The notes under the pieces: model-generated | What the model was told of the DNA's origin: nothing | Databases searched by the model: none | What the model saw: the letters and a program-made list of their open reading frames with translations, nothing else | Translations under genes and position numbers: made by a program | In this document: one piece after another, positions 45,498 through 63,164 of the stretch | How the letters are laid out: each line of letters begins with the position of its first letter | Position numbering within the stretch: the stretch's first letter is position 1 | Source of the DNA: Candidatus Bathyarchaeia archaeon | GTDB taxonomy: Archaea > Thermoproteota > Bathyarchaeia > Bathyarchaeales > Bathycorpusculaceae | DNA length: 64,000 nt | Direction of reading: 5' to 3' | Assembly (NCBI GenBank): GCA_049516875.1 | Contig: JBEKSS010000002.1 | Coordinates: 199,336 to 263,335, forward strand

Positions 45498-45503
45498 GCT
45501 TGT

Positions 45504-46223: not shown

Positions 46224-46347
46224 TCCAGTAGCGTATCTTCCCTTCTGGCACTTATCCTTATTTGCGATTGTGAAGGGTGGAAGTGTGTGGGTTTGAGCTG
46301 GAAAATGGTTTCTGGGAAGCTTGCAGGTGCGGTGAGCAGGCAGTTTT

Positions 46348-46591
46348 CATGTTGAGCTTTGAGGTCTTGTGTTTGAGTACTCAATTCGTGATTTCTTTGA
46401 GTGTCAAAACGTTGTTGAAGCATGTTGGTTTGAAGCTTTTTTTACTCAATTCTGCGAGGCTTTTAAGCGTCAAAAGTTTCGGCATGCTGAGTTTCTCATG
46501 TTAGAGTCGGAGGCCTTGTGTTTGAGTACTCAATCCGCGATTTCTTTGAGCCTCAATACCATGGCTGATTTTTGGTGTTGTCGTTTGATTC
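46348..46591 (-). repeat. Tandem cluster of the dispersed palindromic repeat (copies ~46348-46409, degenerate ~46421-46475, 46497-46591)
   Basis: CTTGTGTTTGAGTACTCAAT.CG.GATTTCTTTGAG occurs twice; reverse complement of the copies at 6.8 and 40.9 kb. Confidence 0.85.
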
Positions 46592-46880
46592 TGTGTTGCG
46601 GCCATCAATGGACGGTGGATTCGTCGTTTTACTCGCTTTTGATTCGTTCTTGTGTCGTTTGTGTCTGTAAGTGGTTGCGGGCGGAGGACGTTTAGATAAG
46701 TGGCTGTTCGCTGTTGGGGGAAAATTCAGGGTGTTGCTGTTTTAGTTCATGTTTTTCGGACTACGATGATGTTGCTCTCTTCGGGAGCGTTATGAAGAAG
46801 AATGCCGCTTGGAGTCTGGCAGCGTAGGGAGGATGGTTTTACGCTCCTGAGAGAGCAGAATGCAATTGAGTTTTCCGAGT

Positions 46881-46973
46881 TATACTCTTTATGAAATGCA
46901 GATATTTCGAACTCGGATTCAGAATAGTCTTTACAGTCGAAGGAGGGGAACGTTGTCGGGTTGCTGATTTGGA
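46881..46973. promoter_or_regulatory. Duplicated 93-bp regulatory module, copy 1 (contains motif CTCGGATTCAGAAT at 46912-46925)
   Basis: Ungapped, 70/93 identical to 47862-47954 by manual count. Confidence 0.65.
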
Positions 46974-47553
46974 AAGGCGAGGGTTCACGTTTGATGAAAT
47001 GCCATCCCGAGAACATCGTGTAAAACAGAGAGTGAGTTTCCGCTTGGTTTAGTCTGGCACGTGAGTTCAAAGTCGCGGAGCGCGCTTTTGCGGTTCTGTG
47101 ATATCATGAAAGGGTACTGCTGCTAACTATCCGTGGTTTTCAGTGAAGAGTTGGCCTCCGCGTTCATTTTTTAGATGTTTATTGTCATGAGTGGGCAGGC
47201 TATCACTGGAACGATTCGGTCCAGTGTTACCATGCGGCGAGACTCTGGTTCACTAGGTTCTTGCAGAAACAAACATGTCCTCGAGCACGCGCTCAGTTGA
47301 CCCTGTGCGAGTCGTGATTGTCTATGGGACGCTTAACGCCAAGACTGGTTTGGTTTGCAGTTTTGTTGCTGAAAGATCATGATCAGAGAAGCTGACCGTT
47401 CGAGAGCGCCGTGTTCAAAGAGTTCATGCACGGGGTAGTCAAATAGTTCTACGTTGGCTATTATTGACCTAATGCGAAAAGCTGTGTAGGGGCAAAAAGC
47501 CGTGGAGCACGCGCTATGGCTGTCATTGGGAAAAAGCGCGCACAGCAAAGAAG

Positions 47554-47691
47554 TCAAACGGATACGCGCGCCTGTCTCGCAATTATTCTGTTTACGAGCA
47601 GATAGATCCTGCAAGCTTTGCGTTTTTCGTATTCTGTTTGGTCGCAGCGATTGCATATTATCCGGTTTAGTTCTCTAATATCCGAACTCAT
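47554..47691 (-). CDS. Cys-containing microprotein (45 aa)
   Basis: MSSDIRELNRIICNRCDQTEYEKRKACRIYLLVNRII...; GGAG upstream. Confidence 0.45.
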   Translation of the reverse strand: MSSDIRELNRIICNRCDQTEYEKRKACRIYLLVNRIIARQARVSV

Positions 47692-47861
47692 TCGTACTGT
47701 CTCTCCATTTGCTGATAGTCGGCGCGCGGGGGAATGGCACGCGCCCTCCATAATTGATGCTCTTTCGGGGAGCGTGGCGACCGAGAATGGCCGCAGGTGT
47801 GATAGCCTCTTTTTGATTATGCGTTCCCTTCAAGAGCATGAGCTGGTTGGATATAGCAGGC

Positions 47862-47954
47862 TATATCGTTTATGAAACGGTGATGTTTCAACCTCAGATT
47901 CAGAACAGTCTCTACAGTCGGAGGACGGAAGTACTGTCTGTTTCTTGATTTGGA
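47862..47954. promoter_or_regulatory. Duplicated 93-bp regulatory module, copy 2 (motif at 47893-47906)
   Basis: See copy 1; its left end overlaps palindrome GATATAGC-AG-GCTATATC at 47850-47867. Confidence 0.65.
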
Positions 47955-48043
47955 GTGCGCGTCGATGGTTGGCTTTCGTTTCTTGCAGGCAATGTTGACG
48001 AGGACTGGATGGAGCTCGAGGAGGATGATCAGGTTCTCGAGTG

Positions 48044-48075
48044 CTCAGATTCGGAATGCGTGATAATTGTTATAT
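48044..48075 (+). promoter_or_regulatory. Motif CTCAGATTCGGAAT followed 12 bp later by TTATAT box
   Basis: Upstream of 48152-48541; same spacing as 50459-50491. Confidence 0.6.
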
Positions 48076-48151
48076 CGTGCGACGTAATATTCTCAGGTTG
48101 GACATATGTCTCTCAAGAGACGTATGGTATTGAGGTGCAACAGAAGAACTG

Positions 48152-48541
48152 TTGAACAAAAAAGGTGGCGTGCGAATGTTAGAATTCATGGTGTGGGGTT
48201 TCTGGTTTGTTTTTGGAGGGTACGTGTTCTGGTTCATTTTCAAGGCTGGAACGATCCAGCCACTGGGCTCAGACGAGCTTGCTTTAATGTGGAAACTGCA
48301 CAGACGAGAGAGTGGGTGCGGCGCACCAATCATCAATGAGCTACTCATCAAGAACAGCGAACTGGTCGGGTTCAAGTGCGCGTGCGGTCACGTGTTTCTT
48401 CAGAGACGTTTGATAACCCAGAGGATCTACACGTGTGCCAATTCTTTACTGCCAAAGGCTTCGAATACTGTGCGCTTATCAGAAGTAGATGAGCAACTGA
48501 GGGATCAGGGGTTGCGGTATTCGCGCATAAAAGAGATGTAG
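48152..48541 (+). CDS. Hypothetical membrane-anchored protein with Cys/His cluster (start probably MLEF)
   Basis: N-terminal TM; WKLH..GC...GFKCACG. Confidence 0.7.
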   Translation: MNKKGGVRMLEFMVWGFWFVFGGYVFWFIFKAGTIQPLGSDELALMWKLHRRESGCGAPIINELLIKNSELVGFKCACGHVFLQRRLITQRIYTCANSLLPKASNTVRLSEVDEQLRDQGLRYSRIKEM

Positions 48542-48921
48542 AAGCGCGCGGGACAGTGAGGAACGATAGAATGAAGCAGAAAAAGAGCGCGCTAATCTCA
48601 ACGGCGATATTGGATCATAGTTGGGAGAAGCAGTTCGTAAGACGTCATCTTGTTCTTCAAGGCAACCCTCCCTATGTTACCTCCGTTAAAACAGTAAAGA
48701 TTGAAAAGAAACTTCTGCCGAAGCAACCGTGAGCGCTCACCTGCGATGGGTACATAGCGGTCATGCACCCTCTGAAAACGAAGGACTAAAGAAACGGGGG
48801 CATAGCAACGATAGAAGTGGTGGATCTAAAGGTGCACGGTCAGGGCATGTTTTGCTATTGATGGCGGATCTGTTTAGCGCGGGCGATGACGCATTTTAAC
48901 AAGTTTTTTGGTTTTTTCGGC

Positions 48922-49395
48922 TTACTGTCGTCCAAAGAGAGGTTTCCGTTTAGTATTGTTATCTCGTCCAAAGAGAGGTTTCTGTGTGTTATCATGATCA
49001 AATTCCATCCAATTGCTGACATGTTCAGCAGTCTTCTTGTTCAGATGCTTTCTGATTGTCTCCAGTAACTTCTGTACGTCGAAAGGTTTCAAAACATATC
49101 CATCGGCACCCTCGTTAACAGTCTTCATAGCATTCTCCAGGGTCGGAAAGCCCGTGATGATTATCTTGACCATATGGGGCTGCTTTTCCTCGAGCCTGTG
49201 GAGGAGCTCAGTTCCCTCCATATCAGGCAACTTAATGTCGATCAGGGCTACGTCAAAATGCGATTTTTCGGAAGCTCTGATCGCCTGCTTGCCGTTTTCT
49301 ACAGTTTCAACCGAGTATCCCTCCTCGGATAGGATTGAAGAAAGGGTCTTTCTCGCCTCAGTTTCGTCGTCAACAACCAAGATGTTTTCATTCAA
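48922..49395 (-). CDS. Response regulator (stand-alone REC)
   Basis: ILVVDD, DVALIDIKLPDMEG, IIITG, YVLKPF. Confidence 0.93.
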   Translation of the reverse strand: MNENILVVDDETEARKTLSSILSEEGYSVETVENGKQAIRASEKSHFDVALIDIKLPDMEGTELLHRLEEKQPHMVKIIITGFPTLENAMKTVNEGADGYVLKPFDVQKLLETIRKHLNKKTAEHVSNWMEFDHDNTQKPLFGRDNNTKRKPLFGRQ

Positions 49396-49946
49396 TCACT
49401 GCACTTCAGCTTTCTCATCCGTTGCGACCGCAGACGCTACATTTTGACATGGGCGAGATAAGTCTCTTATGAAGCACGAATGCGAGTTACTTATCAAGTT
49501 TACTCGGAGACAGAATCCGAAACTGCGTGCCCAGTCACAAAGAGTCTTGCGATTGGTTGCCAGAGATTAAGAGCATTTGTTTTTGATTTTTGATGTTGAA
49601 GAGAACTCTCTCTGTTGACCTGTCACATAGATTCTCTGTGCGTTTTTTTGGACGTAGCGCGTTGTCGCGAGAAATCCGTGCCTACGCGTTGAGGCGTCGA
49701 CGGACAATTGGCTTACCTCAAAACGTCTGCTGAATGGACTCTTGTCGCAAGGCTAAATGCACCAAAGAGCGTATGAGCATTTTCAACCTTGACGCGCGCC
49801 TGTTCATCCTGCCAAGGCAGCCTGAGGGCGAGATTTGGCCGCTGATGGGTTCTGATTCAGATTATGAACATAAATTATATCAGCACAAAGAATAACAGAC
49901 TAATATATTAAGATATAATACAGGTCTTCGTTGGGCCTGTGACAAA

Positions 49947-50156
49947 ATGAGAACCATCAGACTTTCGAATGAGACATTCGAATTCCTTGCGTGGTTAGTC
50001 CGGCAAGATGTGACCTTGCCCTCGGTTATTACTGACTATCTTAAGTGGGATACGTATTCGAAGGAGCAAATCAAGGCTCATTTTCTGGCCTTACACGACG
50101 CGTGTATTGAGTCACGCGAAGCCAGGTCAAAACGAACAGAGAAACATTTGACCTAG
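49947..50156 (+). CDS. Small hypothetical protein (RHH/antitoxin-like N-terminus)
   Basis: MRTIRLSNETFEFL; AT-rich TATA region at 49901-49920. Confidence 0.55.
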   Translation: MRTIRLSNETFEFLAWLVRQDVTLPSVITDYLKWDTYSKEQIKAHFLALHDACIESREARSKRTEKHLT

Positions 50157-50458
50157 CTATCTGCGCGCGTTATACGAAAGAGATTCAGATTCCAGATTCG
50201 AATCGTAGCCTTTAGCAGTTCATGAAGCTAATGCTGATGCATCTTCACCAGCTCAGCGGGATTGCCTGTTGGCCGAATGGGTTCACACTTTCCTTTTTGG
50301 GAGGTCATGTCAGTGGGCGTTCTATGCTCGTTTGATAATAAGCTTCCAACCGGCCAGGGTGCGTGCTGGTTCGATGAGTTTTGAGAGTGTTTTGAAGGAT
50401 AGCATGGAATAGTAAACATAGCACATCCATGCTAGGCGCGCTGATTCGGCCCGTCTCT

Positions 50459-50491
50459 ATTCGGACTCGGAATCGTGGGTAATACTTATAT
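50459..50491 (+). promoter_or_regulatory. Motif ATTCGGACTCGGAAT followed 12 bp later by TTATAT box
   Basis: Upstream of 50615-50854. Confidence 0.6.
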
Positions 50492-50614
50492 CGTAAGATA
50501 GACTATATCGATAATAGATATGTCTGAATATAGACATATTGTACATCTGTACAACAAAGCAACAGCAAAAAGCTGTGAGGAAAAGTTAACGTATGCGCAA
50601 TAAAGGTGATTTGA

Positions 50615-50854
50615 ATGAAAGCATCAGTAAAAGTATCGTCAGAACGAAAGATTCAGCAAGGAATGGTGATGGGTCTTGGAGCTATCTATCATAGAGTGAC
50701 AGCGATTTCCCTGCATAGTGCTCTTCCCCGCGGAATGTTCGCAAATGAGCTTCCATATGAGGCGTTCAGGATATACAGAAGTGTGAGGAGCGAATTTGAG
50801 TGTAACCGAGCATCGGCCATGGTAGAAGCGCAGCAAACCCTTCGTCATCTTTAA
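50615..50854 (+). CDS. Small hypothetical protein
   Basis: AAGGTGAT SD, upstream TATA, downstream T-tract. Confidence 0.6.
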   Translation: MKASVKVSSERKIQQGMVMGLGAIYHRVTAISLHSALPRGMFANELPYEAFRIYRSVRSEFECNRASAMVEAQQTLRHL

Positions 50855-50858
50855 AGAG

Positions 50859-50878
50859 CCTCCTTTTTTTATTTTTGG
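50859..50878 (+). terminator. Oligo-T archaeal terminator
   Basis: T-rich tract CCTCCTTTTTTTATTTTT directly after the stop codon. Confidence 0.5.
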
Positions 50879-50889
50879 TTGCGCGCGAC

Positions 50890-51086
50890 GCATGATGGAT
50901 CGCTCCAGTCCGAAAATGTTCTCGATAGCTTGAGCGAATGTCCTGAGTCTATGAGGTATCTCGTCTCTTCTGATGTGAAAACCTCTCGAGATGAAAGCAA
51001 ACCGTGTGCATTGTGGAATCACCCAGTGAGCACAGTTCCTCGTCCGTTGCCTTTGGAAGAAGCACGCCAAACTCTGATTCAACCAA
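50890..51086 (-). pseudogene. Frameshifted, truncated paralog of 56133-56504 (DUF3227/NitrOD5-like)
   Basis: LVESEFGVLLPKATDEELCSLGDSTMHTVCFHLE / shift / FHIRRDEIPHRLRTFAQAIENIFG. Confidence 0.7.
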
Positions 51087-51180
51087 TGTGAATCCGTGGA
51101 CGATTCACCATATGCCAAGATTCTAGCGTGTCCGCGCTCATCGTTCATCCGTTGTTGTGCGTGCTTGAATGCAAAGAGCT

Positions 51181-53652
51181 TCATTGCGTCAGAATCCTAT
51201 AGTTCTCTTTTCCATTCGAATTCGTTTTAGGTATCGTCATGACGAATTGAGCTCCTCCGCCGAACTTACCTGTCTCCTCTATTGTCCAGCCATACACTTC
51301 CGTAATCTTCTTGATCAGGTACAATCCATGGCCAGTGCTTGCGCCCGTGCTGTAGCCTTCCTTGAAAAGCTTCGGTTTTTCGGCGTCGCGTATGCCGATA
51401 CCGTCATCTTCATAAACAAGGGTTACATCATTTTTGCCGCTTTTTTCGTAGTGTATCCTTATTCTTGTTATCTCTTGGCCATACTTGAGTGAGTTGTCGA
51501 TTAGGTTGTAGAAAAGCTGTTGAAGCAGTGAATCTGCCAATAGGTTCAAGCCATGGCAATCATTGATCACCTTTGCGCCTTTCAAGTCAGAAAAAAGTGA
51601 AGCGGCCTCTTTGATAGTCTTCTCAACGTCGGTGTGAGTCAACTCTTCAATACCCAGCATCTCGTAAGTCTTCGCGAAATCGAAAATTGCCACTGATTGT
51701 TGGACGGCTTTCTCTATTTCTCTTAGATATTCCTGGACTCTGATGTTGTCAGCGGTTCGCTTCCTTGCCAGATATGCGTTTCCCACGATTGCGGACAGTT
51801 TGTTTCGGACATCATGCCTGGTTAAGCCACCGACAACCTGCAGCTTTTCATTCATCATGGTCAGCTTTTTCTGGGCATTTGTCTGTTCTGAGATGTCTTT
51901 GTAGACACTGATGTAGCCTGTTAGCTTGTCTCGGATGAAAATTGGTGCGGAAGAGACTGAGACAGGAATTAACGATCCGTCTTTCCTCTTTCTGACAGTG
52001 TCATGGGTAGCATATCCCTTCGCGGCCTTCCTTTCCAGCATCTTCGACTCTGCGATTAATCTCTCTGGCACTACTACATCAGTGAGGTGTTTACCTTTCA
52101 CTTCACTTGGCAGGTATCTGAACAGGCTTGCAAAGCGAGGATTGGCGTCAATAATGTGGAAACTGGGGTCTGTGTACACCGTGGCTTCTGGATTGCCTAT
52201 GAACAACGCTGCAAATCTCTGCTGGTTCTCAAGAATTAGCTTTTCTGCGTCCTTTCGTTCAGAGACATCTCTCATGAGTACTTGAACTCCCACTGGATTG
52301 CCCTCTTTAGTTAATAAACCAGGATGCACTTCTGCCCATCGACTCGTTCCATCTCTCCGAACATAAAAGAATTCAACTGGTGCTGGTGATTCTCCCTTTA
52401 TCAGAGACTTGAACATCTCCTGAAATTTTGGAATGTCCTCCATCCGCATAGTCTTCAACTCCGTGAATGGTTTGCCAACGATTTCTTCAGAGTCATGGCC
52501 TACTAACGTCAGGAAACTACGGTTGGCCGATGTGACTATGCCTTCCGCATTCACAGCTAATATGCCATCGGGAGCCAGCTCAACCAGACTTCTATATTTT
52601 TCCTCAGATTCTTTTAACGTTCGTTCTGCTATCCTGCGTTCGGTGATGTCGATGCAAGTACCAACCCATTCCCTAATGCTTCCGTCTTCATTAAGCACAG
52701 GGACGCTACGGGCTATGAAATAGCGATAGACCCCATCATGCCTACGCAGACGATACGTGGTCCATCCCAACTCCCCCGTTACTTCAATGAAGGACCGATA
52801 ACGATCCAGACTCGCATGCAATGCTTGCTCCATTTTCTTGCGACTGGTTACATCAAACACAATTCCGTCAATGCCCTCAAAAACGCCATTCTTAGAAAAG
52901 AATGACGTCTTATGATCTTCCACCCAGCGAACTCCACTTTCTTTGTCGACAATTCTATACTCTTGTGTGATGCTCGCTGGTCCTTCTAGAATTATGCCTC
53001 CTTCTTTTACAACTCTCGCTTTGTCATCTGGATGAATTATGTCTAACCAGTTTACTCTTCTAGAGTCAAATTCTTGAATCGTATATCCACACACGCTTTT
53101 GCTATTGGCGACTATCTCTGTTGACCAGTCAGCGCGCGCTCGGTAAACCAAGTCAGGGATGTTTTGAATCAAGCTTTTGTATTTTGTCTCAGATTCTTTT
53201 AATGCTTCCTCAGCCCTTTTTCTTTCTGCGACTTGGCGTATGCCGTGTGCTAGTTCACCATAGACAGTTTCTGGTGCACCAGATTTGCTGAAGTATCCGT
53301 CAGCGCCCAAGTTGAGCGCTTTAATGGCTACTTCTTCCCTTCCCTTTCCGGTGAAAATGATGAAAGGAACGTCGTTTCCTCTTTCTCTTAGCTCCTTCAG
53401 AAACTCTAACCCATCTTTCCCAGGCATCTTGAAGTCTGAGACAATGACATCAAAGTCTTCTTTTTTCATTCTTTTGATGGCTTTTCCGACAGACGATGCT
53501 GCCTCAATTTGGAATTCGCCCTGCGTTCCCAGACACTGCTGGGCAACTTTCAGACAGCTCAGGTCATCGTCAACGTGCAAAATCCTTATGGGTTTTTTTA
53601 CAATCAAGTCTGAAAGAACTGCGGTTGAAGATTCTGAAAGGGGTTCTTTCAT
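51181..53652 (-). CDS. Hybrid sensor histidine kinase: REC-PAS(n)-HisKA-HATPase
   Basis: ILHVDDD/SDFKMPGKDG REC; PAS/PAC repeats; LTRHDVRNKL H-box; NLIDNSLKYG, YEDDGIGI, GHGLYL. Confidence 0.95.
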   Translation of the reverse strand: MKEPLSESSTAVLSDLIVKKPIRILHVDDDLSCLKVAQQCLGTQGEFQIEAASSVGKAIKRMKKEDFDVIVSDFKMPGKDGLEFLKELRERGNDVPFIIFTGKGREEVAIKALNLGADGYFSKSGAPETVYGELAHGIRQVAERKRAEEALKESETKYKSLIQNIPDLVYRARADWSTEIVANSKSVCGYTIQEFDSRRVNWLDIIHPDDKARVVKEGGIILEGPASITQEYRIVDKESGVRWVEDHKTSFFSKNGVFEGIDGIVFDVTSRKKMEQALHASLDRYRSFIEVTGELGWTTYRLRRHDGVYRYFIARSVPVLNEDGSIREWVGTCIDITERRIAERTLKESEEKYRSLVELAPDGILAVNAEGIVTSANRSFLTLVGHDSEEIVGKPFTELKTMRMEDIPKFQEMFKSLIKGESPAPVEFFYVRRDGTSRWAEVHPGLLTKEGNPVGVQVLMRDVSERKDAEKLILENQQRFAALFIGNPEATVYTDPSFHIIDANPRFASLFRYLPSEVKGKHLTDVVVPERLIAESKMLERKAAKGYATHDTVRKRKDGSLIPVSVSSAPIFIRDKLTGYISVYKDISEQTNAQKKLTMMNEKLQVVGGLTRHDVRNKLSAIVGNAYLARKRTADNIRVQEYLREIEKAVQQSVAIFDFAKTYEMLGIEELTHTDVEKTIKEAASLFSDLKGAKVINDCHGLNLLADSLLQQLFYNLIDNSLKYGQEITRIRIHYEKSGKNDVTLVYEDDGIGIRDAEKPKLFKEGYSTGASTGHGLYLIKKITEVYGWTIEETGKFGGGAQFVMTIPKTNSNGKENYRILTQ

Positions 53653-53842
53653 ATAGATAAACTCCCATACTATGCCTGAATATTCACTCTACCTGGATGC
53701 TGGACACTTGTTTCTGATTCTATGCTTGAAAGTTAAGTCTTCTGAAGCAGATGTACGAATCGGTGGGCTTTGAAATTCAGATTCAGAATGCAAAGGTTCG
53801 CATGCTATCGCCCAACTTGTTTTGCCAGGACATGTCAAGGAT

Positions 53843-55228
53843 TCAAGCACGGGCATTGCATTCACTTTCCGAAGCGACGCTTGTCTTATTTTCACCCATG
53901 AACAAATTCAAGTTCTTGTCGACTCTATGCGACTGCTGCCACAAATTCTCGAAGACCATTTCCAACAAATCAATTTGCGTTTGGTCATTCGTCCAAAAGG
54001 CCTTTGGGCTTGCATTTCTGAGTTGAAACTCTCCCCAGATTGCTTCTTCATCAACTATTAGCAGACTGAAGGACAACATTTCTACGTGTCTTAGCTCAAT
54101 ACGGTTGTCAGCTATCCTCGACCGCACAAGCTTCAACACGTGCGTTTCATTTAGCCCGGATTCACCGACTATTATCCGTGCGTTGATCTGACTTTTGCCC
54201 GCGTTCATGGTCTTCTTCATGTTTCTCAGGAATATCGTTTCTAGCAGGTCGGGTGAGCTCACCAACATGATCCGCTGTTTAGCTTTCTTTGTCATCTGAA
54301 CGAGTTTTCTCGCTATATTGTCTTGTTGACACAAAACTTCAATTGAATTATCTCTTTCTTTCATTTTCAACGCAGTTGTTCTCAGTTGGGCGATCAACTC
54401 ATCCTTTTTCTGTCTAAGGCTGCTGATCTCTTCTTTCATGGCTTTGAACTTGGCATTGGTCAAGGTTCCAAGGGCCGTCTTCACCTCGATTACTGAGAAC
54501 CTTGTCGGTGTCCCTAGCTTTCTTGTTACTAAGCCAAGTTTCTCAAGTTCTGGTATCATTCTGTAGACTTCCTCCCTGCGGATTTTTGACAGGGAAGCAA
54601 TTTCTGAGGCTGAAGCCGCGCCCAAAGCATTCAGTCCAATGTAGATTTTTGCCTGTGTTTTTGTCACCCCAAAAAGAGCAAACTCTTTTGCGGTTTTCTC
54701 CAAGAATTCTTGGAAGTCAGATGACTGGGCCTTGCGCACACGTAGCTTAACCCAATCTGCTAGCCTTCTCGTTGTAATCTTTTCTCTTTGTTCGCGTTCC
54801 TGCAGTTTGCCTTTTATTGTTTTCAGCAGACTATCCGGATCAAGTGGCTTCGTCAGGTATGAATCAGCGCCAGCGTTGAGCGCTTGGGCAACGTTCTCAA
54901 TTGAAGGGTAACCAGTAATCATGATCTTTATTGTTTCTGGAGCGAATTTCTGAAAATGCAAAAGCAGCTGTGTCCCTTCTATATCGGGCAGTCTAATGTC
55001 AAGCAACAATAGGTCAAAAAACCTAGTCTTTGCCTTTTCCACAGCTTCCTTTGCGCTTCCCACGCTTTCCGTCATATACCCTTCCGATCGCAGCATGGCC
55101 GAGAGAGAGTCGCGTGTGCCTATTTCATCATCCACTATCAGTATAGCGGGCGAAGCTCGGTTCATCACGGATCGCATCCTATTAGTTCTAGTATTTCCAT
55201 TTCGGTCAATCTTTTTTGGCGACTTCAC
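53843..55228 (-). CDS. Response regulator with REC + TrmB-like wHTH and effector domain
   Basis: ILIVDD...LDIRLPD...KP; FGVTKTQAKIYIGL...SEIASLSKIRREEVYR...LEKLGLV. Confidence 0.9.
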   Translation of the reverse strand: MKSPKKIDRNGNTRTNRMRSVMNRASPAILIVDDEIGTRDSLSAMLRSEGYMTESVGSAKEAVEKAKTRFFDLLLLDIRLPDIEGTQLLLHFQKFAPETIKIMITGYPSIENVAQALNAGADSYLTKPLDPDSLLKTIKGKLQEREQREKITTRRLADWVKLRVRKAQSSDFQEFLEKTAKEFALFGVTKTQAKIYIGLNALGAASASEIASLSKIRREEVYRMIPELEKLGLVTRKLGTPTRFSVIEVKTALGTLTNAKFKAMKEEISSLRQKKDELIAQLRTTALKMKERDNSIEVLCQQDNIARKLVQMTKKAKQRIMLVSSPDLLETIFLRNMKKTMNAGKSQINARIIVGESGLNETHVLKLVRSRIADNRIELRHVEMLSFSLLIVDEEAIWGEFQLRNASPKAFWTNDQTQIDLLEMVFENLWQQSHRVDKNLNLFMGENKTSVASESECNARA

Positions 55229-55325
55229 GATGATTATGTAACTGTGTTGTTACAGTCACACAAGCATTATGAGGTGAATCATATTAAGAGTTTAGCTATA
55301 TACCACTTTCGTAGGAGAGTCAGCT

Positions 55326-55655
55326 TTGAAGTCAGACGTAGTAACCGATCTTGATGCCAGGCTGATTCAGAACTTCATGGACATAATAATCCTCAGAGTA
55401 CTTAAGAACAATCATCTTACAAGTGGATACGACTTCATCAAATATTTCCATCAACGATTCCACGTACTGGTGAGCTCAGGTACAGTATACTCGATTCTGT
55501 ACTCTCTGGAAAGACAAGGCTTCATAGAAGGGAATCCTGATGGAAGGAGAAGAGTTTACAAACTAACGGGGCAGGGCGAAGAATTCTTGCAAAGGATTTG
55601 CATGACTCACGAACGCAGCCATACCGTTTTTTCGTCAATCTTTTCCGGCGCTTAG
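55326..55655 (+). CDS. PadR-family transcription regulator
   Basis: FMDIIIL...SGYDF...VSSGTVYSILYSLERQGFI...RRVYKLTGQG. Confidence 0.92.
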   Translation: MKSDVVTDLDARLIQNFMDIIILRVLKNNHLTSGYDFIKYFHQRFHVLVSSGTVYSILYSLERQGFIEGNPDGRRRVYKLTGQGEEFLQRICMTHERSHTVFSSIFSGA

Positions 55656-56128
55656 GGTTGCATGACTCCAGCGCTTCCTGCCTATTTCAAGCTCAAGATA
55701 CTTGACTCGCGTCTCAATGTATTGCGCAACTTTCTTCTCACCATACTCAAGATCTTCGCGCCGCTTCTTCAGTTGTTTCTCAATTAACGTCAGTAACTCT
55801 TGAACATTAATTGGCTTCAAAATGTAACCATCGGCGCTTCTGTTCACGGTTCGATGGCACTGTCAATTGATGGATGCCCTGTGACGAGTATTCTAATCAT
55901 TCTTGGCTCCGTTTCCTTCAACCTGTCTATCAGGGCAGTTCCTTCCATATCTCGTAATTGCACGTCAATCAAGGTCACGTTGAAAAACCGCCTCTTCGAG
56001 GCTGCAACTGCCTGCTTGCCAGTCTCCACTGTCTCAGCTATGTAACCTTTTGCTTTCAGAATTTGTGAAACGGTTTTCCTTATCATGGCATCGTCGTCTA
56101 CAACGAGCACGCTAGGTCTTTGCTTCAA
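55635..56128 (-). pseudogene. Response regulator (REC) split by a 1-bp frameshift near 55850
   Basis: ...GHPSIDSAIEP* continues in another frame as VNRSADGYILKP. Confidence 0.8.
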
Positions 56129-56132
56129 GTCT

Positions 56133-56504
56133 TCACCTCCTTGTTTTCTTCACTGTTGAAGTGATTTCACTGGAGCTTGGAACCAAAGTCACGCTGGATG
56201 AAGAAATGCTTCTTATCCTGCAAACTGACTTAACAAAATCGAGAGCATCATCCTCGACAACCTTTACTTCCAACATTTCGCACAGTTTTTTCAAGATTAG
56301 TTCCTCCAGAAATGTTGCACCACCCTTGAAGATTGCTCTTAAAGCTTCATCAAACTCTTCAAGTCTTCCGGGAATCTGCCGTCTGGGCAAGCGGAAAGTC
56401 TTTTCCAAATGAAAATATAGGGCCATACGACATGATTTGCCAAGAGAACAAAACGCAAAATCGACTGCCCCGAGCAAGGCCTCATCGAATTCTTGGAAAA
56501 TCAT
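56133..56504 (-). CDS. Hypothetical protein, DUF3227/NitrOD5-like signalling-associated domain
   Basis: LLGAVD..CSLG...LYFHLE.TF...IP..LEEF..AL..IF.GGA..LE..ILKKL pattern; family name recalled, not searched. Confidence 0.7.
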   Translation of the reverse strand: MIFQEFDEALLGAVDFAFCSLGKSCRMALYFHLEKTFRLPRRQIPGRLEEFDEALRAIFKGGATFLEELILKKLCEMLEVKVVEDDALDFVKSVCRIRSISSSSVTLVPSSSEITSTVKKTRR

Positions 56505-56651
56505 GTCGAGTCAGTCTCCAGAGATGAAGGAATATGTCACATGTTTTCCTAGACAACGTATATCGTTTGTGAAAGGTGGATTTGGATTGTCAGCGTTGTA
56601 GATTCGGATTTGGAATTTGAACTTTCTCGTGTCGAAGCTCGGCTCATGTGT

Positions 56652-56840
56652 TAGCGCGCATGCTTGTTCCTAAATTGGTTTTAAATGGTTTTTGTTCGTC
56701 TTTTGTGATTTTGGGACAGCTTTGGGCTTAGCATCTGCTCTTGAATTCTTCATACTGATCTGCCTTCTCGAACCTGCAGAAGCGTGCAGAAACGGAATTA
56801 AAACCATTTTTAACCATTTTAGGAACACGCATGCGCGCTA
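56652..56840. repeat. 189-bp element bounded by 41-bp inverted repeats (MITE-like or invertible segment)
   Basis: 56652-56692 vs reverse complement of 56800-56840: 37/41 identical; TA at both outer ends. Confidence 0.85.
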
Positions 56841-56965
56841 TATCTCTGTGGGACCCGTTCTTTCTCTGATGCGTGGGCTATTTTGTTGTCGGTATTCCGA
56901 ATCTGAATTTACACTAAACTATTTTTGATACTGCCTGTAGACAACATCGAGAGCTGGTTATAGAT

Positions 56966-57316
56966 TTGGAAAGAGAAGTCGTTAACACAGTATATGAGCG
57001 GTTTCTGAAAGAGTTCATGGATATATTGATTATGGTGAAGATGAGACAAGGAGAAACCAGTGGCTACGATATACTCACCTATTTTCATGAGAAGTTTGAT
57101 TTTCTGGTTAGTCCAGGCACGGTCTACTCTGTGCTGTATTCCATGGAAAGGAATGGGTTGATCAAAGCTCGGGGTGTTGACAGAAAAAGAGTCTATGCAC
57201 TGACCTCCAAGGGCGAAGCGACAATCAAGGCTATCCGCGAATCAGGCGAAGTTCTCGAGGGTTTCTTGACACGTCTCCTGAAAGAAGGTGAGCCCGTCCC
57301 CAATCGACCTATGTGA
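56966..57316 (+). CDS. PadR-family transcription regulator
   Basis: FMDILIM...SGYDIL...VSPGTVYSVLYSMERNGLI...KRVYALTSKG. Confidence 0.92.
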   Translation: MEREVVNTVYERFLKEFMDILIMVKMRQGETSGYDILTYFHEKFDFLVSPGTVYSVLYSMERNGLIKARGVDRKRVYALTSKGEATIKAIRESGEVLEGFLTRLLKEGEPVPNRPM

Positions 57317-57461
57317 CTTTGACTTCTTCAATCTTTTTGCACCAGGGAATCCTTGCTGTTCCTTTTGAAAGTTCCTGAAATATCTCTTTCTGGATCTCCT
57401 CGTTTGAACTTTCGCGACTCTCGTCTACGAGTGAAATAACAATCGTGGCCTTGTTGCCCAT
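57309..57461 (-). CDS. 50-aa microprotein ('IPWC' family), copy 1; not in ORF track
   Basis: MGNKATIVISLVDESRESSNEEIQKEIFQELSKGTARIPWCKKIEEVKVT; GGTGA SD; paralog at 60317-60469. Confidence 0.8.
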   Translation of the reverse strand: MGNKATIVISLVDESRESSNEEIQKEIFQELSKGTARIPWCKKIEEVKVT

Positions 57462-57810
57462 TCTATCACCGAAGCTTCAGTGATGAGCGGTTCTGTCTAA
57501 TTTGCTTTTTGGAAGAGGATTACAGAAGGTTCCTCCGCATGTACAGATTTAGGATGGGAAATCTCGCGGCCAAGGTTCACAGCTTGAGTGGTCAACACAT
57601 CTCAGGTTGGCACAGGTGCGCACTCTGAACCTCACCCCTTCGGACTGCCTAGATTTTTGCATGAAGGTTCAGGTGCGCCACGCAGAAGATGAACATTCTA
57701 GGATTCTTAGATTAATCTGCCTGCCGGTTTCGGACTCTAAATCAAGGGGAACTATAGGCTTTTGGAGATAGTCAGATTCGGAATCGAGATTTGACTGGTG
57801 ATGAAACCTT

Positions 57811-58305
57811 ATGTATTCACTTCACTTCAACGAGTTTCTGTTAGCAGACGTGTGGTGTAGGAGTGCGTTAAGTGTGGTGTACAACGGTTTCAGTCTGGGT
57901 TATGATGAGCTGAAAGGTGTTCTTCGCGAGGTCAGCAAACGTACGAGACGACGGCACTACGCGGGCGATGGTTGGATCCACAGGAAACTGTTGGAGGCTT
58001 GCGTGGGTTTTGCGAAGAACGGATTCAGAATCGTCGATAAAAGGGTTATCAGCAGACTGTGTGTAGCTTTCAGAGAACTCCGAGTCGCCAAAGGACGGCT
58101 GAGTATTCTCTTGGACGGAGAGGTTAAGGCTTTAGAAATGCAAGTCCAATACAGAACGCGTGGAGTGTTCGAATGGGCGCCTAGACTTGAAACATGGCTC
58201 AACACTGTGGGCTACAAGTTTTGGCTTGGCACGATCCAGCATTCCTATGCAAGTGGCGCTTGTCCAGTGTTTGAAGTCGTAGGTCGTCAATCTGATAAGC
58301 AGTGA
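57811..58305 (+). CDS. Hypothetical protein
   Basis: Long ORF with VFEWAPRLETWL...FWLG; motif site upstream at 57770-57784. Confidence 0.65.
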   Translation: MYSLHFNEFLLADVWCRSALSVVYNGFSLGYDELKGVLREVSKRTRRRHYAGDGWIHRKLLEACVGFAKNGFRIVDKRVISRLCVAFRELRVAKGRLSILLDGEVKALEMQVQYRTRGVFEWAPRLETWLNTVGYKFWLGTIQHSYASGACPVFEVVGRQSDKQ

Positions 58306-58525
58306 GAATACTTCGTCAAGTAACCCTACGCAGCGCGTCAACCGGACCCGAAAGAAGGGAAGGAGAGGTTTCTCATCCGTCTCGCTACCGACGCCTCTGA
58401 TCAAAAAGATTGAGGAAGTCATTGATGAGCTTGGATACTGGCCGACGAAGACTGCCTTTGTTCGCGAGGCCAGTCTTGAAAAGCTGGACAAGCACAGGAA
58501 GGAAGAGTTAGTTCAAGGAAAATGA
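58292..58525 (+). CDS. Ribbon-helix-helix (CopG/Arc-like) regulator; no ATG/GTG/TTG start
   Basis: GFSSVSLPTPLIKKIEEVIDELGYWPTKTAFVREASLEKL; frame open from 58283, candidate CTG start at 58292. Confidence 0.65.
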   Translation: MISSENTSSSNPTQRVNRTRKKGRRGFSSVSLPTPLIKKIEEVIDELGYWPTKTAFVREASLEKLDKHRKEELVQGK

Positions 58526-58811
58526 GAATTTGAACATGGACAGAGCACTAGAGCTTCTAATTCTGACAACAGTGCGTGCTGTGTGCGTTGAAGTTGACTT
58601 GCTTTGTTGCCCTAGCTGTCGTTCTGGAAGACTGTCTTGGATAGAATACACTCCAGCCTAGCGTCAAAACCAATTCTAACTGAGGAAGCCAACATAGACC
58701 TTGCACAAAACAAAATCATCAATAATTCGCGTTCTATGGGGGAGTTGACGTGCCAGTAGTAGTAGGTAATACTCTCTCAAGTCTTTCACAAAGCGCAAAC
58801 GACTAGCAGAA

Positions 58812-60083
58812 TTGATCGAGTTGTTCACAATAATCACAACACTCTACACTGTTCTAGCCTGCTCGATCTTCGCCGTCACGGGGTGGTCACTCTATAATTT
58901 GCCAATTCTAGTCGCCGGTGTAAAGGCATTGCGGGCATCCAAGTGTGAACTTGAGTGTAAGCCCACAAAGAAAAGGAACCTTCCATCAATTTCGATTATT
59001 GTACCTGTGAAAGACGAAGAGAAAGTCATAGGGCGACTGCTGAACTCATTGACCGCCACAGATTATCCCTCAGACAAGCTAGAGGTAATCGTCGTGGAAG
59101 ACGGTTCAACTGACGACACTCTCAATATCTGCAATGAGTTTGCGAAAGAACATAGTTTGAACCTGAAGATACTCCACAAGGAATTCTCTAACGGTAAACC
59201 TTCAGCATTGAACTATGGAATCAAACATGCCACAGGCGAAATCATCGGAATACTTGATGCTGACAACTTGCCTGCCCGTGACATTCTGCTCAATGTGTCC
59301 AAGTATTTTGAAGACCGAAAAGTGGCAGCTGTTCAGGGCAGAACCTTATCCATCAACTTCGAGCACAACATGTTAACTAGGTTCATCTCATATGAAGAGG
59401 CTGCTTGGTGCGAAGCATACCTACGAGGCAAAGATGTTTTGAAACTGTTTATCAACCTGAGGGGAAGTTGTCAGTTCATAAGACATGATGTCTTGGAGGC
59501 AATCGGAGGTTTTGATGAGAGATTTCTAGCTGAAGACATGGAGCTTTCTGCCAGAATGGCAAACCATCGGTATCAAATCAGATATGCCTCAAATGTGAGG
59601 GCATGGCAGGAATGTCCGTCGCAATTGAAGCAGTTGCTTACGCAGCGGACAAGATGGTACCGAGGGTGGATGGAGATTGCTCTCAGATATGGCCGCCTGA
59701 TGGCTAAGCCAAGCAGGGTCAGCGTTGACGCTGAGGCAACGCTCCTGGGACCCTTCATCATGATAGCATCATTGGCATCTTACATATTCGCTTTCCTTGC
59801 TTTTCTTGTCCCTGTCCCGCTTGGTTCACCACTACAGTTTGTAATGCAGTCTTCAGCGGTCACTACCACGCTGCTAGTGGTTTTGTGCGGGCTAACTCTT
59901 ATCTGGCTCTCCAAGCCTCGACGGTTACGTAACCTCTTATGGTTACCATTTGTTTATGGTTACTGGTGCCTGCAGGCGTTTATCGCTTTGTACGCTGCTT
60001 TGCTCATTCTGCTACGCAGACCGAAGAAGTGGTTGAAGACTAGCAAGACCGGCTTCATCTCAAATCTTAAGGCGGATTCTTAA
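58812..60083 (+). CDS. GT2 processive-type glycosyltransferase (cellulose synthase/IcaA-like)
   Basis: SIIVPVKDE, EDGSTD, GKPSALN, LDAD, LAED, QRTRW; TM segments at both ends. Confidence 0.92.
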   Translation: MIELFTIITTLYTVLACSIFAVTGWSLYNLPILVAGVKALRASKCELECKPTKKRNLPSISIIVPVKDEEKVIGRLLNSLTATDYPSDKLEVIVVEDGSTDDTLNICNEFAKEHSLNLKILHKEFSNGKPSALNYGIKHATGEIIGILDADNLPARDILLNVSKYFEDRKVAAVQGRTLSINFEHNMLTRFISYEEAAWCEAYLRGKDVLKLFINLRGSCQFIRHDVLEAIGGFDERFLAEDMELSARMANHRYQIRYASNVRAWQECPSQLKQLLTQRTRWYRGWMEIALRYGRLMAKPSRVSVDAEATLLGPFIMIASLASYIFAFLAFLVPVPLGSPLQFVMQSSAVTTTLLVVLCGLTLIWLSKPRRLRNLLWLPFVYGYWCLQAFIALYAALLILLRRPKKWLKTSKTGFISNLKADS

Positions 60084-60094
60084 TGCGAATATCT

Positions 60095-60315
60095 ATGCGT
60101 GGCTATGAAAGGTTTCTAGCAACTGGCGGTGCAGGTTTCATTGGTCGTTCCTTATGAAGAGCTTGTTAACACAGGACTTGAAGTCACGATAATTGATGAT
60201 TTGTCTACTAGAAGGCTTGACAACATCCACGGCTGTGCACAAAAGGGCGAAATGCATTTCTAATGTATGAAATCATGGATTTGCGAATCGTTCACAAGTG
60301 CGCGCAGAACGTGTG
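60095..60315 (+). pseudogene. Degraded 5' fragment of an NAD-dependent epimerase/dehydratase
   Basis: FLATGGAGFIGRSL*, then shifted frame EELVNTGLEVTIIDDLSTRRLDNI. Confidence 0.75.
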
Positions 60316-60316
60316 G

Positions 60317-60469
60317 TCAAGTGACTGTGACTTTTTCGACCTTTTTGCACCAGGGAATCCTTGCCCAGCTTTTCGTAAGTTCTTGGAATATTTCCTTTTG
60401 GATCTGTTCATTTGTTTTTTCGCAGCTCTCGTCTACGAGCGAAATGATAATAGTTGCCTTCTTGGTCAC
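60317..60469 (-). CDS. 50-aa microprotein ('IPWC' family), copy 2; not in ORF track
   Basis: GTG start; MTKKATIIISLVDESCEKTNEQIQKEIFQELTKSWARIPWCKKVEKVTVT; GGTGA SD. Confidence 0.8.
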   Translation of the reverse strand: MTKKATIIISLVDESCEKTNEQIQKEIFQELTKSWARIPWCKKVEKVTVT

Positions 60470-60720
60470 CCTCTCACCAGAGCTAGACCCATAAGCAGGT
60501 CTATCTAATCTGTTTTGTGGAGAAGAACTATAGAACCTTGTTCGCCATATTCGGATTTGGAATTGAAATTTGACAAGCGTCGCTTGCGATTGCGTTCTTG
60601 CTTTTCATAGTGTTTCTTTTGCGCTTGCAGCACCTGTTGCAGCATATTCTTGTGACTGCAGTATTGACTCGCTATTTGTTCTAGCGCGCAGACCCGGACA
60701 AGATTCCAGGCTTGCTTCAA

Positions 60721-60760
60721 ATTCAGGTTCGGAATTCGACTTCTCACTAAATTTTAAGTA
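60721..60760 (+). promoter_or_regulatory. Motif ATTCAGGTTCGGAAT upstream of a TTTTAAG TATA-like box of the surface-protein gene
   Basis: Motif 60721-60735; TATA-like box from 60752. Confidence 0.55.
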
Positions 60761-60787
60761 TGACACGCGCCTGCAATCCTAGAAGGA

Positions 60788-63136
60788 GTGAAAGAAATGA
60801 CTAAGAAGAAATCGGTTTGTTTAGTAAGCATAGCGTTCTTGATGGTTTCGATAGTTGCATTTGCATACCTTCCAAAAGCCTTTTCATCGACGACACTGCA
60901 CACGGCCAGAGTGACTCCGACCACGACGACTCTTCCAGTAACTCAACTTAACTTCGAGGTAAACAAGACAGGTGATAACGTGATAAACAGAACCAGAATA
61001 GTGCTTCCCTCTAATGTCAACTACACGGGGGTCATTGCCCCCGTAAACGCGACAAGTGGATGGTACTACACGTATAACCTTGCTGATAATTCTCTCGACT
61101 TCACAGGCAATGTATCATGTGCCATAGGAGAAGCAAGTTGCCCCTCTGATGATTATTTACACCATCTATGGTTCAACATAACTATGCAGTGGCTATCAGT
61201 ACCGCCTGGACAAGCTGTGTTCAGTGTTAACTGTTCCCTTACTACGATCTCACCCAGCCCAGGCTTAACGACGCAAAGCTCAAGCAACCCACAACTGGTG
61301 AACGTCACCTTTACCCCCCAGTTCAGCGCCACGATAACACCAAGTCCCGTCGTTAAGAGCAGCACTGCCTACCTGTTCTACATAACGACCACAAACACAG
61401 GAGCTGGCATAGGAATAAGCGAAATAAACATAACCTACCCATCAGGCTGGACATTCAACGCCCTGCTAACCTACAGCCCAGCAACATGGAGAACAAGTCA
61501 AGATGTGACTAAGCATATTTTGGCCCTCACAGGGCCAAACCTGGCGATAGGAGCATCTGCATGGGTTCAGGTCAACATGACGTCAGGAAGCACAACCCAG
61601 GACCCAAGCCACTGGAACTCAACCGCATGGAACGGCGGAGAAACATGGCTAGGAACATGCGATCTGCCAGTAGCCGTTGATAAAGACTTGCCTATCGTCC
61701 ATATTGACACATCATCTTCCTTCTATGGCGTGGGTTCTGGAAACCACATCTGGGTTAACGCCACGGTGACCGAGGACCTCAACATAACAAAGTATGGGCT
61801 GACCGTTGCTAGCAACGACACAAGGTTCGGATTAGCCAGCTCTGCTATGACTACCTCCCTCATTTACACGTACTACTTCGCCAACACCAGCGCCATTCCG
61901 GATGGGCCTCTGTACGTTAATGTCACGGCTACAGACGCAGCTGGGCACTTGGGCCATGGAGATTCGTCCTACACCGTGGATAACAATGGTCCGAGTCTGT
62001 TATCGCTCAGGGTTAGAGATCCGGCCGACTTGCCAAGCATCGCAGGGGTCTACTGGATGTCAACAACCTCAGCAACTATAGATGTGAACGCCACCTTCTA
62101 CAGCCCACTTGGCTGTGACCTGTCTGGGTCCTTGTACTTTAATGGGACACTGTTTGAGTCTTTTCATAACTATACGTGGACTACCACCGGTTACGATGTT
62201 CGTGGCGTAGACCTAGTGATCCTCAATATAACCTTGACTGATACTTGCTCGCCGGTCAACAGATTCACACAGACATGGAATATAGTCAGAGACAAGGTGT
62301 CTCCATCAGCCACAACGTTCACAGCATCAGCCATCTGCGGTGGAGCCATCATAAGAAGTCTTAACGCCACTGACATCGTCGGAATATATTCATACAGAGT
62401 ATACGTGAACGGCACAAGGTGTACTTCTGATGTTACCATAGATCAACTAAATACTACCACAGCCCTCGTATCTTCGGCTAATTGGACCGCATTCAACAAC
62501 GTGCTTGTACTAAACCTAACAACAAGCGGCGGCAAAGTTGCCAACATAACCATAACGGCCTTGGACTACGCCGGCAACGAAGGACCTGGAGGCACACCAC
62601 AGTACATATCGATCCCCTTGGACCGATGGTCTCCGATAGAGCTACAGCCGGGTTGGAACCTGATAGGGCTTCCTCTCATACCCGCAAACAATGCCAGTGC
62701 GGCAGTGTTATCTTTGATTCTCAAGCAGGGCGCATCCGGGGTAATCGTTTACGGCTACGACAGCACCACGAACAGCTTCACACTTAACCCAGCCACGGTG
62801 GTAGACGGAAAAGGCTACTGGATTTACATGAATGCATACGATGTCATGATAGTCAGCGGCCGCGTATCTCCGACACCACCAGCCCTGCCACCAAACTACG
62901 ATCTAGTCACAGGATGGAATCTCGCGGGCTACAAGTCCATAACCACACACAGCCCCCTCAGCTACCTGTCAAGTCTACCAACTACGCCTACAACCTACTT
63001 CGCTTACATCTACGTCTGGGACGCCATCGGCCAAACTTGGCAAATGAAAACAGGCTCCTCGGACACGCTATCCCCTGGACAGGGCTTCTGGATCTGGATG
63101 TACAGCAACCAGACTCTGATACCGCCGATACCCTAA
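60788..63136 (+). CDS. Large secreted/surface (S-layer-like) glycoprotein
   Basis: Signal peptide; Thr/Asn-rich with many NxT/S sequons; Ig-like repeats; two C-terminal L..GWNL.G repeats. Confidence 0.85.
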   Translation: MKEMTKKKSVCLVSIAFLMVSIVAFAYLPKAFSSTTLHTARVTPTTTTLPVTQLNFEVNKTGDNVINRTRIVLPSNVNYTGVIAPVNATSGWYYTYNLADNSLDFTGNVSCAIGEASCPSDDYLHHLWFNITMQWLSVPPGQAVFSVNCSLTTISPSPGLTTQSSSNPQLVNVTFTPQFSATITPSPVVKSSTAYLFYITTTNTGAGIGISEINITYPSGWTFNALLTYSPATWRTSQDVTKHILALTGPNLAIGASAWVQVNMTSGSTTQDPSHWNSTAWNGGETWLGTCDLPVAVDKDLPIVHIDTSSSFYGVGSGNHIWVNATVTEDLNITKYGLTVASNDTRFGLASSAMTTSLIYTYYFANTSAIPDGPLYVNVTATDAAGHLGHGDSSYTVDNNGPSLLSLRVRDPADLPSIAGVYWMSTTSATIDVNATFYSPLGCDLSGSLYFNGTLFESFHNYTWTTTGYDVRGVDLVILNITLTDTCSPVNRFTQTWNIVRDKVSPSATTFTASAICGGAIIRSLNATDIVGIYSYRVYVNGTRCTSDVTIDQLNTTTALVSSANWTAFNNVLVLNLTTSGGKVANITITALDYAGNEGPGGTPQYISIPLDRWSPIELQPGWNLIGLPLIPANNASAAVLSLILKQGASGVIVYGYDSTTNSFTLNPATVVDGKGYWIYMNAYDVMIVSGRVSPTPPALPPNYDLVTGWNLAGYKSITTHSPLSYLSSLPTTPTTYFAYIYVWDAIGQTWQMKTGSSDTLSPGQGFWIWMYSNQTLIPPIP

Positions 63137-63164
63137 ACACCCCTTTTTCTTTTTTTGAGGTGAC

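Follow-up and report, generated by a model that had tools for sequence, protein, structure and literature searches.

A 15-bp dyad-symmetric motif repeated through a strain-specific island of a Bathyarchaeia archaeon is probably the operator of an island-encoded PadR-family regulator

The window analysed here is a stretch of 64,000 nucleotides from the genome of a Candidatus Bathyarchaeia archaeon (family Bathycorpusculaceae; assembly GCA_049516875.1, contig JBEKSS010000002.1, positions 199,336 to 263,335 of the forward strand). It corresponds to G000:C2:199336-263335, where G000 denotes the genome of the window (2.43 Mb in 20 contigs) and all other G codes are comparison genomes. A 15-bp motif recurs through an island at the right-hand end of the window, and the original prediction, made from the letters alone, was that a single regulator acts through it on a kinase, on regulators, on microproteins and on surface genes. 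Our analysis supports one regulator with a shared operator on sequence grounds: the motif is confined to the island, it is conserved in orthologous promoters, and its spacing to TATA-like boxes is non-random. The motif is most likely a dyad-symmetric operator with the core ATTC-N7-GAAT, for which the island form is ATTCRGATTYRGAAT. We consider it probable that this operator belongs to a dimer of the second PadR-family protein of the island, PadR2, which would be autoregulated and whose operator would have been multiplied into a local regulon. Regulator, operators and targets are, by this prediction, one module, horizontally acquired and shared, sites included, by five other genera.

Sequence and distribution of the motif

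Within the window ATTCRGATTYRGAAT has four exact matches (53775+, 56602+, 56894- and 60549+), compared with none in any of 100 shuffles. If up to two mismatches are allowed there are 11, all between 46911 and 60735, where 1.12 would be expected and the shuffle maximum is 4; the copy at 47893, with its three mismatches, is not one of them. The four exact copies are also the only ones in the genome, the remaining 2.41 Mb containing none, and at no more than one mismatch eight of the nine genomic matches lie in the window and a single one in the remaining 2.41 Mb. A scoring matrix trained solely on 19 sites of other genomes, with scores given in bits and the reversed matrix as control, leads to the same picture: eight of the nine matches of at least 18 bits in G000 fall inside the 17.7-kb island, which is 0.73% of the genome, and the control gives three matches, 0 of 3 in the island. 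A genome-wide search had been proposed with the original prediction, and its outcome is thus that the motif is confined to the island and not equally frequent elsewhere.

At a threshold of 11 bits the window holds 18 matches, all within 46911-60741, and the first 46.9 kb contain none, which bears out the earlier statement that no full copy occurs in the first 46 kb. All 11 copies that had been listed were found in the sequence where they had been placed. They had also been described as entirely non-coding, and the listed sites do lie outside supported genes; among the 18 matches of at least 11 bits, however, this is true of 16, and two are not outside. The part that is invariant over all sites is ATTC-N7-GAAT with the centre G-A-T/A-T, confirming the inverted repeat that had been pointed out, and a looser ATTC-N7-GAAT form marks PadR2 promoters throughout the family, so that the motif is not unique to the island. 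The orientation of the motif relative to its target gene is mixed, which fits a dimer on DNA and not an RNA element. A comparison of 44000-64000 with the Rfam 15 covariance models gave no match up to E = 1.

Table 1. Coordinates of the motif copies, genes and other elements of the window (positions are those of the window)
Feature	Position	Strand	Remarks
Strain-specific island	46270..64000		At least 17.7 kb; synteny with four same-genus genomes stops at ~46266-46276; contig ends at 64000
Motif copy	46911..46925	+	17.8 bits; within ~93-bp unit repeated at 47862; on the minus strand, 14 bp before TTTCATAAAGAGTATA
Motif copy	47892..47906	+	3 mismatches, 13.0 bits; paralogue of 46911; unit also in G021
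Motif copy	48043..48057	+	12 bp to TTATAT (48070); 118 bp before gene of 121-aa membrane/Cys-rich protein
Weak motif copy	49849..49863	+	15.8 bits; 11 bp to TTATAT (49875); 83 bp before 69-aa gene
Composite of overlapping motif units	50183..50203		Best 14.9 bits, minus strand
Motif copy	50459..50473	+	12 bp to TTATAT (50486); 141 bp before 79-aa gene; kept in G021
Hybrid histidine kinase (REC, four PAS, HATPase)	51181..53652	-	Predicted target of S1
S1, exact copy	53775..53789	+	122 bp upstream of hybrid kinase gene
REC-TrmB response regulator	53843..55228	-	461 aa; receiver domain residues 29-138; TrmB PF01978 residues 186-249, 45.8 bits (cut-off 25.6)
Putative PadR1 operator	~55234-55253		TGTAAC-N5-GTTACA
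PadR1	55326..55655	+	109 aa; Pfam PF03551, 43.6 bits (cut-off 27)
123-aa protein and stand-alone REC operon	55635..56504	-	123-aa gene 56133-56504, REC gene 55635-56128; predicted target of S3
Degenerate second copy beside S3	56574-56588		Adjoins TATA region
S3, exact copy	56602..56616	+	97 bp upstream of 123-aa/REC operon
MITE-like insertion	56648..56886		239 bp; 46-nt inverted repeat, GCGCGC-containing ends; separates S3 from S2
S2, exact copy	56894..56908	-	57 bp upstream of PadR2; 11 bp to TATTTTT; presumed autoregulatory operator
PadR2	56966..57316	+	116 aa; proposed motif binder; Pfam PF03551, 41.0 bits (cut-off 27)
50-aa small protein	57309..57461	-	Convergent with PadR2; paralogue at 60317-60469
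Motif copy	57770..57784	+	26 bp before 164-aa gene; ACTATAGG 11-13 bp to the left
164-aa gene, RHH frame (58283-58525), GT2 glycosyltransferase (58812-60083)	57811..60083	+	Downstream of 57770 copy
S5, exact copy	60549..60563	+	79 bp upstream of 50-aa gene 60317-60469 (minus strand); decayed twin 57541-57555
Motif copy	60721..60735	+	12 bp to TAAATTTTAAGT; 52-61 bp before 782-aa secreted protein gene
782-aa and 278+-aa secreted proteins	60788..63998	+	Weak Ig/FG-GAP-like matches only; downstream of 60721 copy

Conservation of the sites in other genera

The gene order PadR1, stand-alone REC, 123-aa protein, S3, S2, PadR2, 50-aa protein and S5 recurs, sites included, in G021, G673, G676 and G645 (S5 being kept in all four), and in G214 S1 and S2 are kept and the REC/123-aa operon is missing. 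Upstream of the kinase, 13 of the 15 columns of S1 are invariant across five genera. S2 is kept in three genera and degenerate in a fourth. In seven genomes S3 is found 100-111 bp ahead of the 123-aa gene, as a three-mismatch variant in G557 and with a flipped orientation in some. In the orthologous modules, from which the element of the MITE (miniature inverted-repeat transposable element) type that separates S3 from S2 in the window is absent, the starts of these two sites are 80-81 bp apart. The comparison with related genomes that had been suggested therefore finds the motif in the same intergenic places of the orthologous module of five other genera.

The surroundings of the module suggest how it arrived. 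An ERCC4 nuclease gene directly precedes the point where synteny is lost, and the DNA 3' of ERCC4 in three same-genus genomes maps to another contig of the same genome, at G000:C5:126080-124668. The synteny break together with this mapping places the motif region inside an insertion of at least 17.7 kb, whose other end is probably represented by the last 3.9 kb of C5. Between the window and G021, a genome of another genus, DNA identity is 81% over window positions 53513-57607 and 72% in the core flank, a difference that fits horizontal transfer.

The protein most likely to bind the motif

The original prediction had named as possible binders the response regulator REC-TrmB, both PadR proteins and a ribbon-helix-helix (RHH) protein, all encoded on the island, besides a trans factor. 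Among these the second PadR fits best; REC-TrmB is a weaker rival, and the distribution of the RHH protein does not support it. Both PadR proteins are recognised by Pfam, and the NCBIfam PadR models match them below the models' own cut-offs. In a protein-only search, PadR2-type genes were found in 99 of the 201 genomes of the family, G000 included. We then examined the promoters of the 29 best PadR2 homologues from the 200 other family genomes, the loci having been chosen without the motif: a site of at least 12 bits is present within 200 bp upstream in 27 of the 29, a site of at least 14 bits in 17 (0/29 with the reversed matrix), and in 15 of the 29 it precedes the match start by exactly 88 bp. 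A separate search covered 10 genomes, in six of which the best PadR2 match had at least 48% identity and upstream DNA, and all six carry a site of at least 16.5 bits.

The same association appears if the search starts from the motif. At 10 of 28 loci around exact motif matches in other genomes a PadR gene starts 19-66 bp away, and these 10 genes encode proteins 34-50% identical to PadR2, nine of them closer to PadR2 than to PadR1; at two further motif loci the neighbour is the 50-aa gene, and 12 bp separate the motif from the TATA-like box that follows. Among the genomes for which both results are available, an exact copy occurs in 18 of 41 PadR2-positive ones versus 2 of 18 PadR2-negative ones (Fisher P = 0.017, the related genomes not being independent), and four same-genus genomes have neither a PadR2-type gene nor an exact motif. 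The only intact PadR2-type gene of G000 is the island copy. Upstream of PadR1, on the other hand, a different conserved repeat is found just before the TATA box in 10 of the 10 genomes examined, as a GTAAC/GTCAC series in the nine others. The repeat is presumably PadR1's own operator, and its difference from the motif would mean that each PadR paralogue has its private site.

Position relative to promoters

TTATAT is 6.1-fold enriched upstream of 1172 long open reading frames (ORFs) in G000, with a peak 41-50 bp before the ATG, and is a genuine promoter word in this genome. A TATA-like hexamer lies 9-16 bp from 7 of 12 motif sites compared with 8.7% of 5775 non-coding island positions (P = 2e-5, which is overstated since 48043/50459 and 57770/60549 are paralogous pairs), so the positional bias on which the original prediction hinged is present. 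By visual inspection, the TATA-like box is 11-12 bp away at 48043, 49849, 50459, 56894 (towards PadR2), 60549 (towards the 50-aa gene), 57770 and 60721, and the 12-bp distance to TTATAT that had been reported at 48043 and 50459 is exact. Sites with such a gap would be centred near -50, just upstream of the transcription factor B recognition element (BRE), and an activator-like reading of this position is plausible. In PadR2 promoters of the core type, 4-5 bp separate the end of the site from the long TATA element that follows, a placement that should be repressor-like, with the site covering the BRE. The idea that promoter spacings of 12-15 and ~34 bp differ by two helical turns fitted S1 and several of the S3 and S4 sites, failed for S3 of the window (28 or 37 bp) and was abandoned.

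The proposed circuit and its alternatives

In the circuit that we propose, a dimer of the PadR-family winged-helix protein PadR2 would bind the ATTC-N7-GAAT dyad, and the site in its own promoter would make it autoregulated. The same site would act beside the BRE/TATA of some ten other transcription units in the island. The predicted units are those of the hybrid kinase, of the 123-aa/REC operon, of the two 50-aa genes and of three small proteins (membrane or unknown), together with the 164-aa/RHH/glycosyltransferase block, the genes for the secreted proteins and two units at 46.9 and 47.9 kb. Sites 4-5 bp from a TATA box are expected to repress, and those at the fixed distance of 11-12 bp may be activating, or may at least work in a fixed geometry. 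Autorepression of PadR2 is likely. At the island targets activation and repression have roughly even odds; activation is considered there by analogy with the TrmB family, whose members can activate from just upstream of the BRE. A fuller version would make this a portable regulon, an intergeneric cassette with a PadR-type master regulator, operators just upstream of BRE/TATA and a complete phosphorelay, in which PadR2 activates at the 11-12-bp sites and represses itself where the site abuts the TATA box, and a small-molecule input through PadR2 gates a kinase/response-regulator circuit that remodels the cell surface. This version we put forward only as a tentative possibility.

Several observations weigh against PadR2 as the binder. 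Matches of at least 16 bits number 19 in 164 kb around the closer REC-TrmB orthologues and 0 in 170 kb around the distant ones, a grouping drawn after the data were seen; by comparison, control loci totalling 141 kb contain 1, and the 2412 kb of G000 that lie beyond the island contain 9. In G411 and G586 the motif stands ~130 bp upstream of REC-TrmB, at loci where no PadR1 or PadR2 homologue was found within 8 kb and a divergent 119-aa winged helix-turn-helix protein is unrelated to either, and in G411 the nearest PadR match (42% identity) is without a site. Sites are present in G005 (86% complete) and G012 (98% complete), where no PadR2-type gene was detected and the best matches reach 36% and 31%. 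The core PadR2 promoters carry a looser form of the motif, with a GAATT or AATTT centre and 13-18 bits with the island matrix, and island and core PadR2 proteins may differ in specificity. Finally, the TATA boxes and transcription starts used throughout are predictions inferred from sequence.

Some of these observations would be accounted for if the motif were the operator of REC-TrmB: phosphorylation by the kinase would then switch a TrmB-type dimer that activates from upstream of BRE/TATA and represses from downstream, like TrmBL1, Tgr and Halobacterium TrmB. We regard this as unlikely, if less so than the other rivals. Of 401 genomes in the order, 23 have a REC-TrmB orthologue. Among the 12 orthologues with at least 44% identity, 8 have the motif no more than 8 kb away, versus 0 of the 10 at 43% or less; in five genera S1 is located between REC-TrmB and its kinase; and the TrmB-family sites described in excerpts of PMC4158304 and PMC4706686 are palindromes of similar build, e.g. 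TACT-N7-8-GAGTA, acting by position. However, the motif is found in the PadR2 promoters of many genomes outside the 23 with an orthologue, and it precedes the 50-aa gene in G007 and G012, where the REC-TrmB matches are to the REC domain only. Between orthologues that have a motif nearby and those that have none (22 compared), the recognition helix IRREEVYR hardly differs and so does not track the motif, and the region between REC-TrmB and PadR1 in the window contains no copy. With motif-first and protein-first searches both pointing to PadR2, REC-TrmB was demoted from its place as leading candidate.

The remaining rivals are much less probable. RHH proteins often read short tandem or inverted repeats, and the motif can be read as two tandem hexamers, so that the RHH protein at 58283-58525, or else the 50-aa protein, might be the binder. 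On contig C3 of G000 a motif-like site of 17.7 bits precedes a 57-aa RHH gene, which is followed by a 50-aa gene, and in G007, G012, G021, G673, G676 and G645 the 50-aa gene again neighbours the motif. However, in G007, G012, G021 and G005, four genomes with motif sites, the search did not find the C3 RHH protein, which is matched in only 16 of 41 genomes including G000, mostly at 26-48% identity; the island RHH frame is without an ATG, GTG or TTG start; and the 50-aa protein has no recognisable DNA-binding family and looks like a target, with the motif upstream. Together the two proteins are a very improbable source of the binding activity, and the genome distribution led us to reject the RHH protein. 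We give slightly less credence again to the view that there is no shared regulator and that the copies are leftovers of promoter and leader duplication within the island, alike by descent and not through selection. Paralogous blocks do exist (46881-46973 and 47862-47954 at 75% identity, 57313-57560 and 60321-60568 at 73%, 48045-48078 and 50461-50494 at 74%), yet in the cross-genus alignments of S1 and S2 the motif columns are the best-kept block between diverged flanks, the 15-mer is kept at copies with unrelated flanks (53775, 56602, 57770 and 60721), and genomes without the island have the same core in their PadR2 promoters. Moreover, one member of the duplicated pair 57541/60549 has decayed together with its TATA box, as expected of a functional promoter unit. 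Least credible of all is that the motif has no role in gene control and instead provides the terminal repeats or recombination sites of a mobile element. The island is an insertion, a real MITE sits between two motif copies, and the copies at 56602 and 56894 are mutually inverted; but the ends of the MITE differ from the motif, and the copies stand 80-81 bp apart in orthologous modules that lack it. Motif copies are not dispersed through the genome, unlike the MITE with its many dispersed copies, and they keep fixed distances to TATA-like boxes and gene starts. No integrase or transposase family was found among the scanned genes, and a scan of the window revealed no tRNA gene.

The island and its genes

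The gene content of the island includes two stand-alone receiver genes. The one in the 123-aa/REC operon is split by a frameshift near 55845, which two independent, 100%-identical metagenome contigs share; in G021, G673, G676 and G645 the gene is intact. The 123-aa protein that precedes it is a member of a multi-copy family that has neither a name nor a Pfam entry and has matches in 234 of 301 genomes from the order; its members often stand in tandem and directly before a stand-alone receiver gene. A search for REC-TrmB homologues gave one unrelated receiver-domain match among the genome contigs and, among metagenome contigs, two 100%-identical, two 73%-identical and distant matches. In the REC-TrmB promoter of G411 and G586 (L097:7950-7985 and L099:5005-5035) a long perfect palindrome, GTGAGTGTG...CACACTCAC, follows right after a TATA-like box and is a candidate for a separate repressor site.

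At 52756/52757, in the kinase gene, two metagenome contigs of the same organism hold 174 extra in-frame bases (58 PAS codons). Of these, 153 are identical to the extreme end of C5, which truncates a paralogous REC-PAS kinase gene; the difference is probably due to collapse of a repeat in the assembly. In the RHH-like frame (ribbon GFSSVSLP...) the preceding stop is followed by no ATG, GTG or TTG start, which may reflect an unusual start, a frameshift or decay; the frame overlaps the end of the 164-aa gene. A decayed, partial second module lies at G000:C3:199062-199800 (L116) and contains a fragment of PadR2, the 57-aa RHH gene mentioned above and a 50-aa gene with 55-61% identity to those of the island.

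Elements of the MITE-like family measure ~190-239 bp, with full-length relatives in G000 at C6:99909, C1:49396 and C15:4339, among other places, and many in same-genus genomes. At the left boundary of the island, within 46344-46559, a 67-nt block is repeated 149 bp apart at 81% identity. The two paralogous units at 46745-46925 and 47730-47906 and their counterpart in G021 (L028:8981-9175) have the look of a minus-strand promoter, the motif being followed after 14 bp by TTTCATAAA. The ~90 nt after this promoter can close a conserved 7-bp stem with one compensatory change, and the three sequences share no conserved ORF. A small RNA is a candidate reading of these units, resting on three sequences.

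Discussion

Bathyarchaeia are abundant and uncultured, and we know of no transcription factor with a mapped site in this group. The analysis provides a concrete pair, a 116-aa protein and a 15-bp site, that could be checked in vitro without growing the organism, and the prediction is backed by about thirty independent promoters. It would place an archaeal two-component system within a second layer of control, exerted by a PadR-type regulator, and regulator, operators and targets apparently travel together between genera. According to excerpts of PMC5847659, DNA-binding response regulators are rare in archaea, and the outputs of archaeal two-component systems are mostly unknown.

The TrmB-family dual regulators offer one comparison. 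In the sections of PMC4706686 and PMC4158304 consulted, the sites of TrmBL1 and Tgr (the TGM motif) and of Halobacterium VNG1451C (TACT-N7-8-GAGTA) are palindromes just upstream of BRE/TATA or at the transcription start, the sign of regulation is set by the position of the site, and one regulator serves many promoters. The island resembles these systems in its palindromic site, whose 4-N7-4 build equals the Halobacterium motif. It differs from them in that the likeliest binder is a PadR, that the regulon would be local (14 kb) and travel with its regulator, and that the island TrmB protein itself has an N-terminal receiver domain.

Another likeness is to PadR regulators such as Bacillus subtilis PadR/padC and Lactococcus LmrR, with which PadR2 shares a small winged-helix protein of ~110-125 aa, presumed to be a dimer, and a ~15-bp dyad site in its own promoter. 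Part of PMC5728393 describes bacterial PadR operators as inverted repeats in their own or a neighbouring promoter and the B. subtilis PadR operator as two inverted half-sites, and part of PMC4534193 describes autoregulation of LmrR. A limited literature search brought up no paper characterising an archaeal PadR operator. Unlike in the bacterial PadR systems, the half-sites here are ATTC/GAAT, the archaeal site stands beside BRE/TATA instead of -35/-10 boxes, it has been multiplied to about ten promoters in one island, and the predicted targets are signalling and surface genes in place of a detoxifying enzyme or pump. The circuit as such, a transcription factor with its operator regulon, is of a known kind, and what sets it apart is a regulon that is local, mobile and expanded to include a two-component system.

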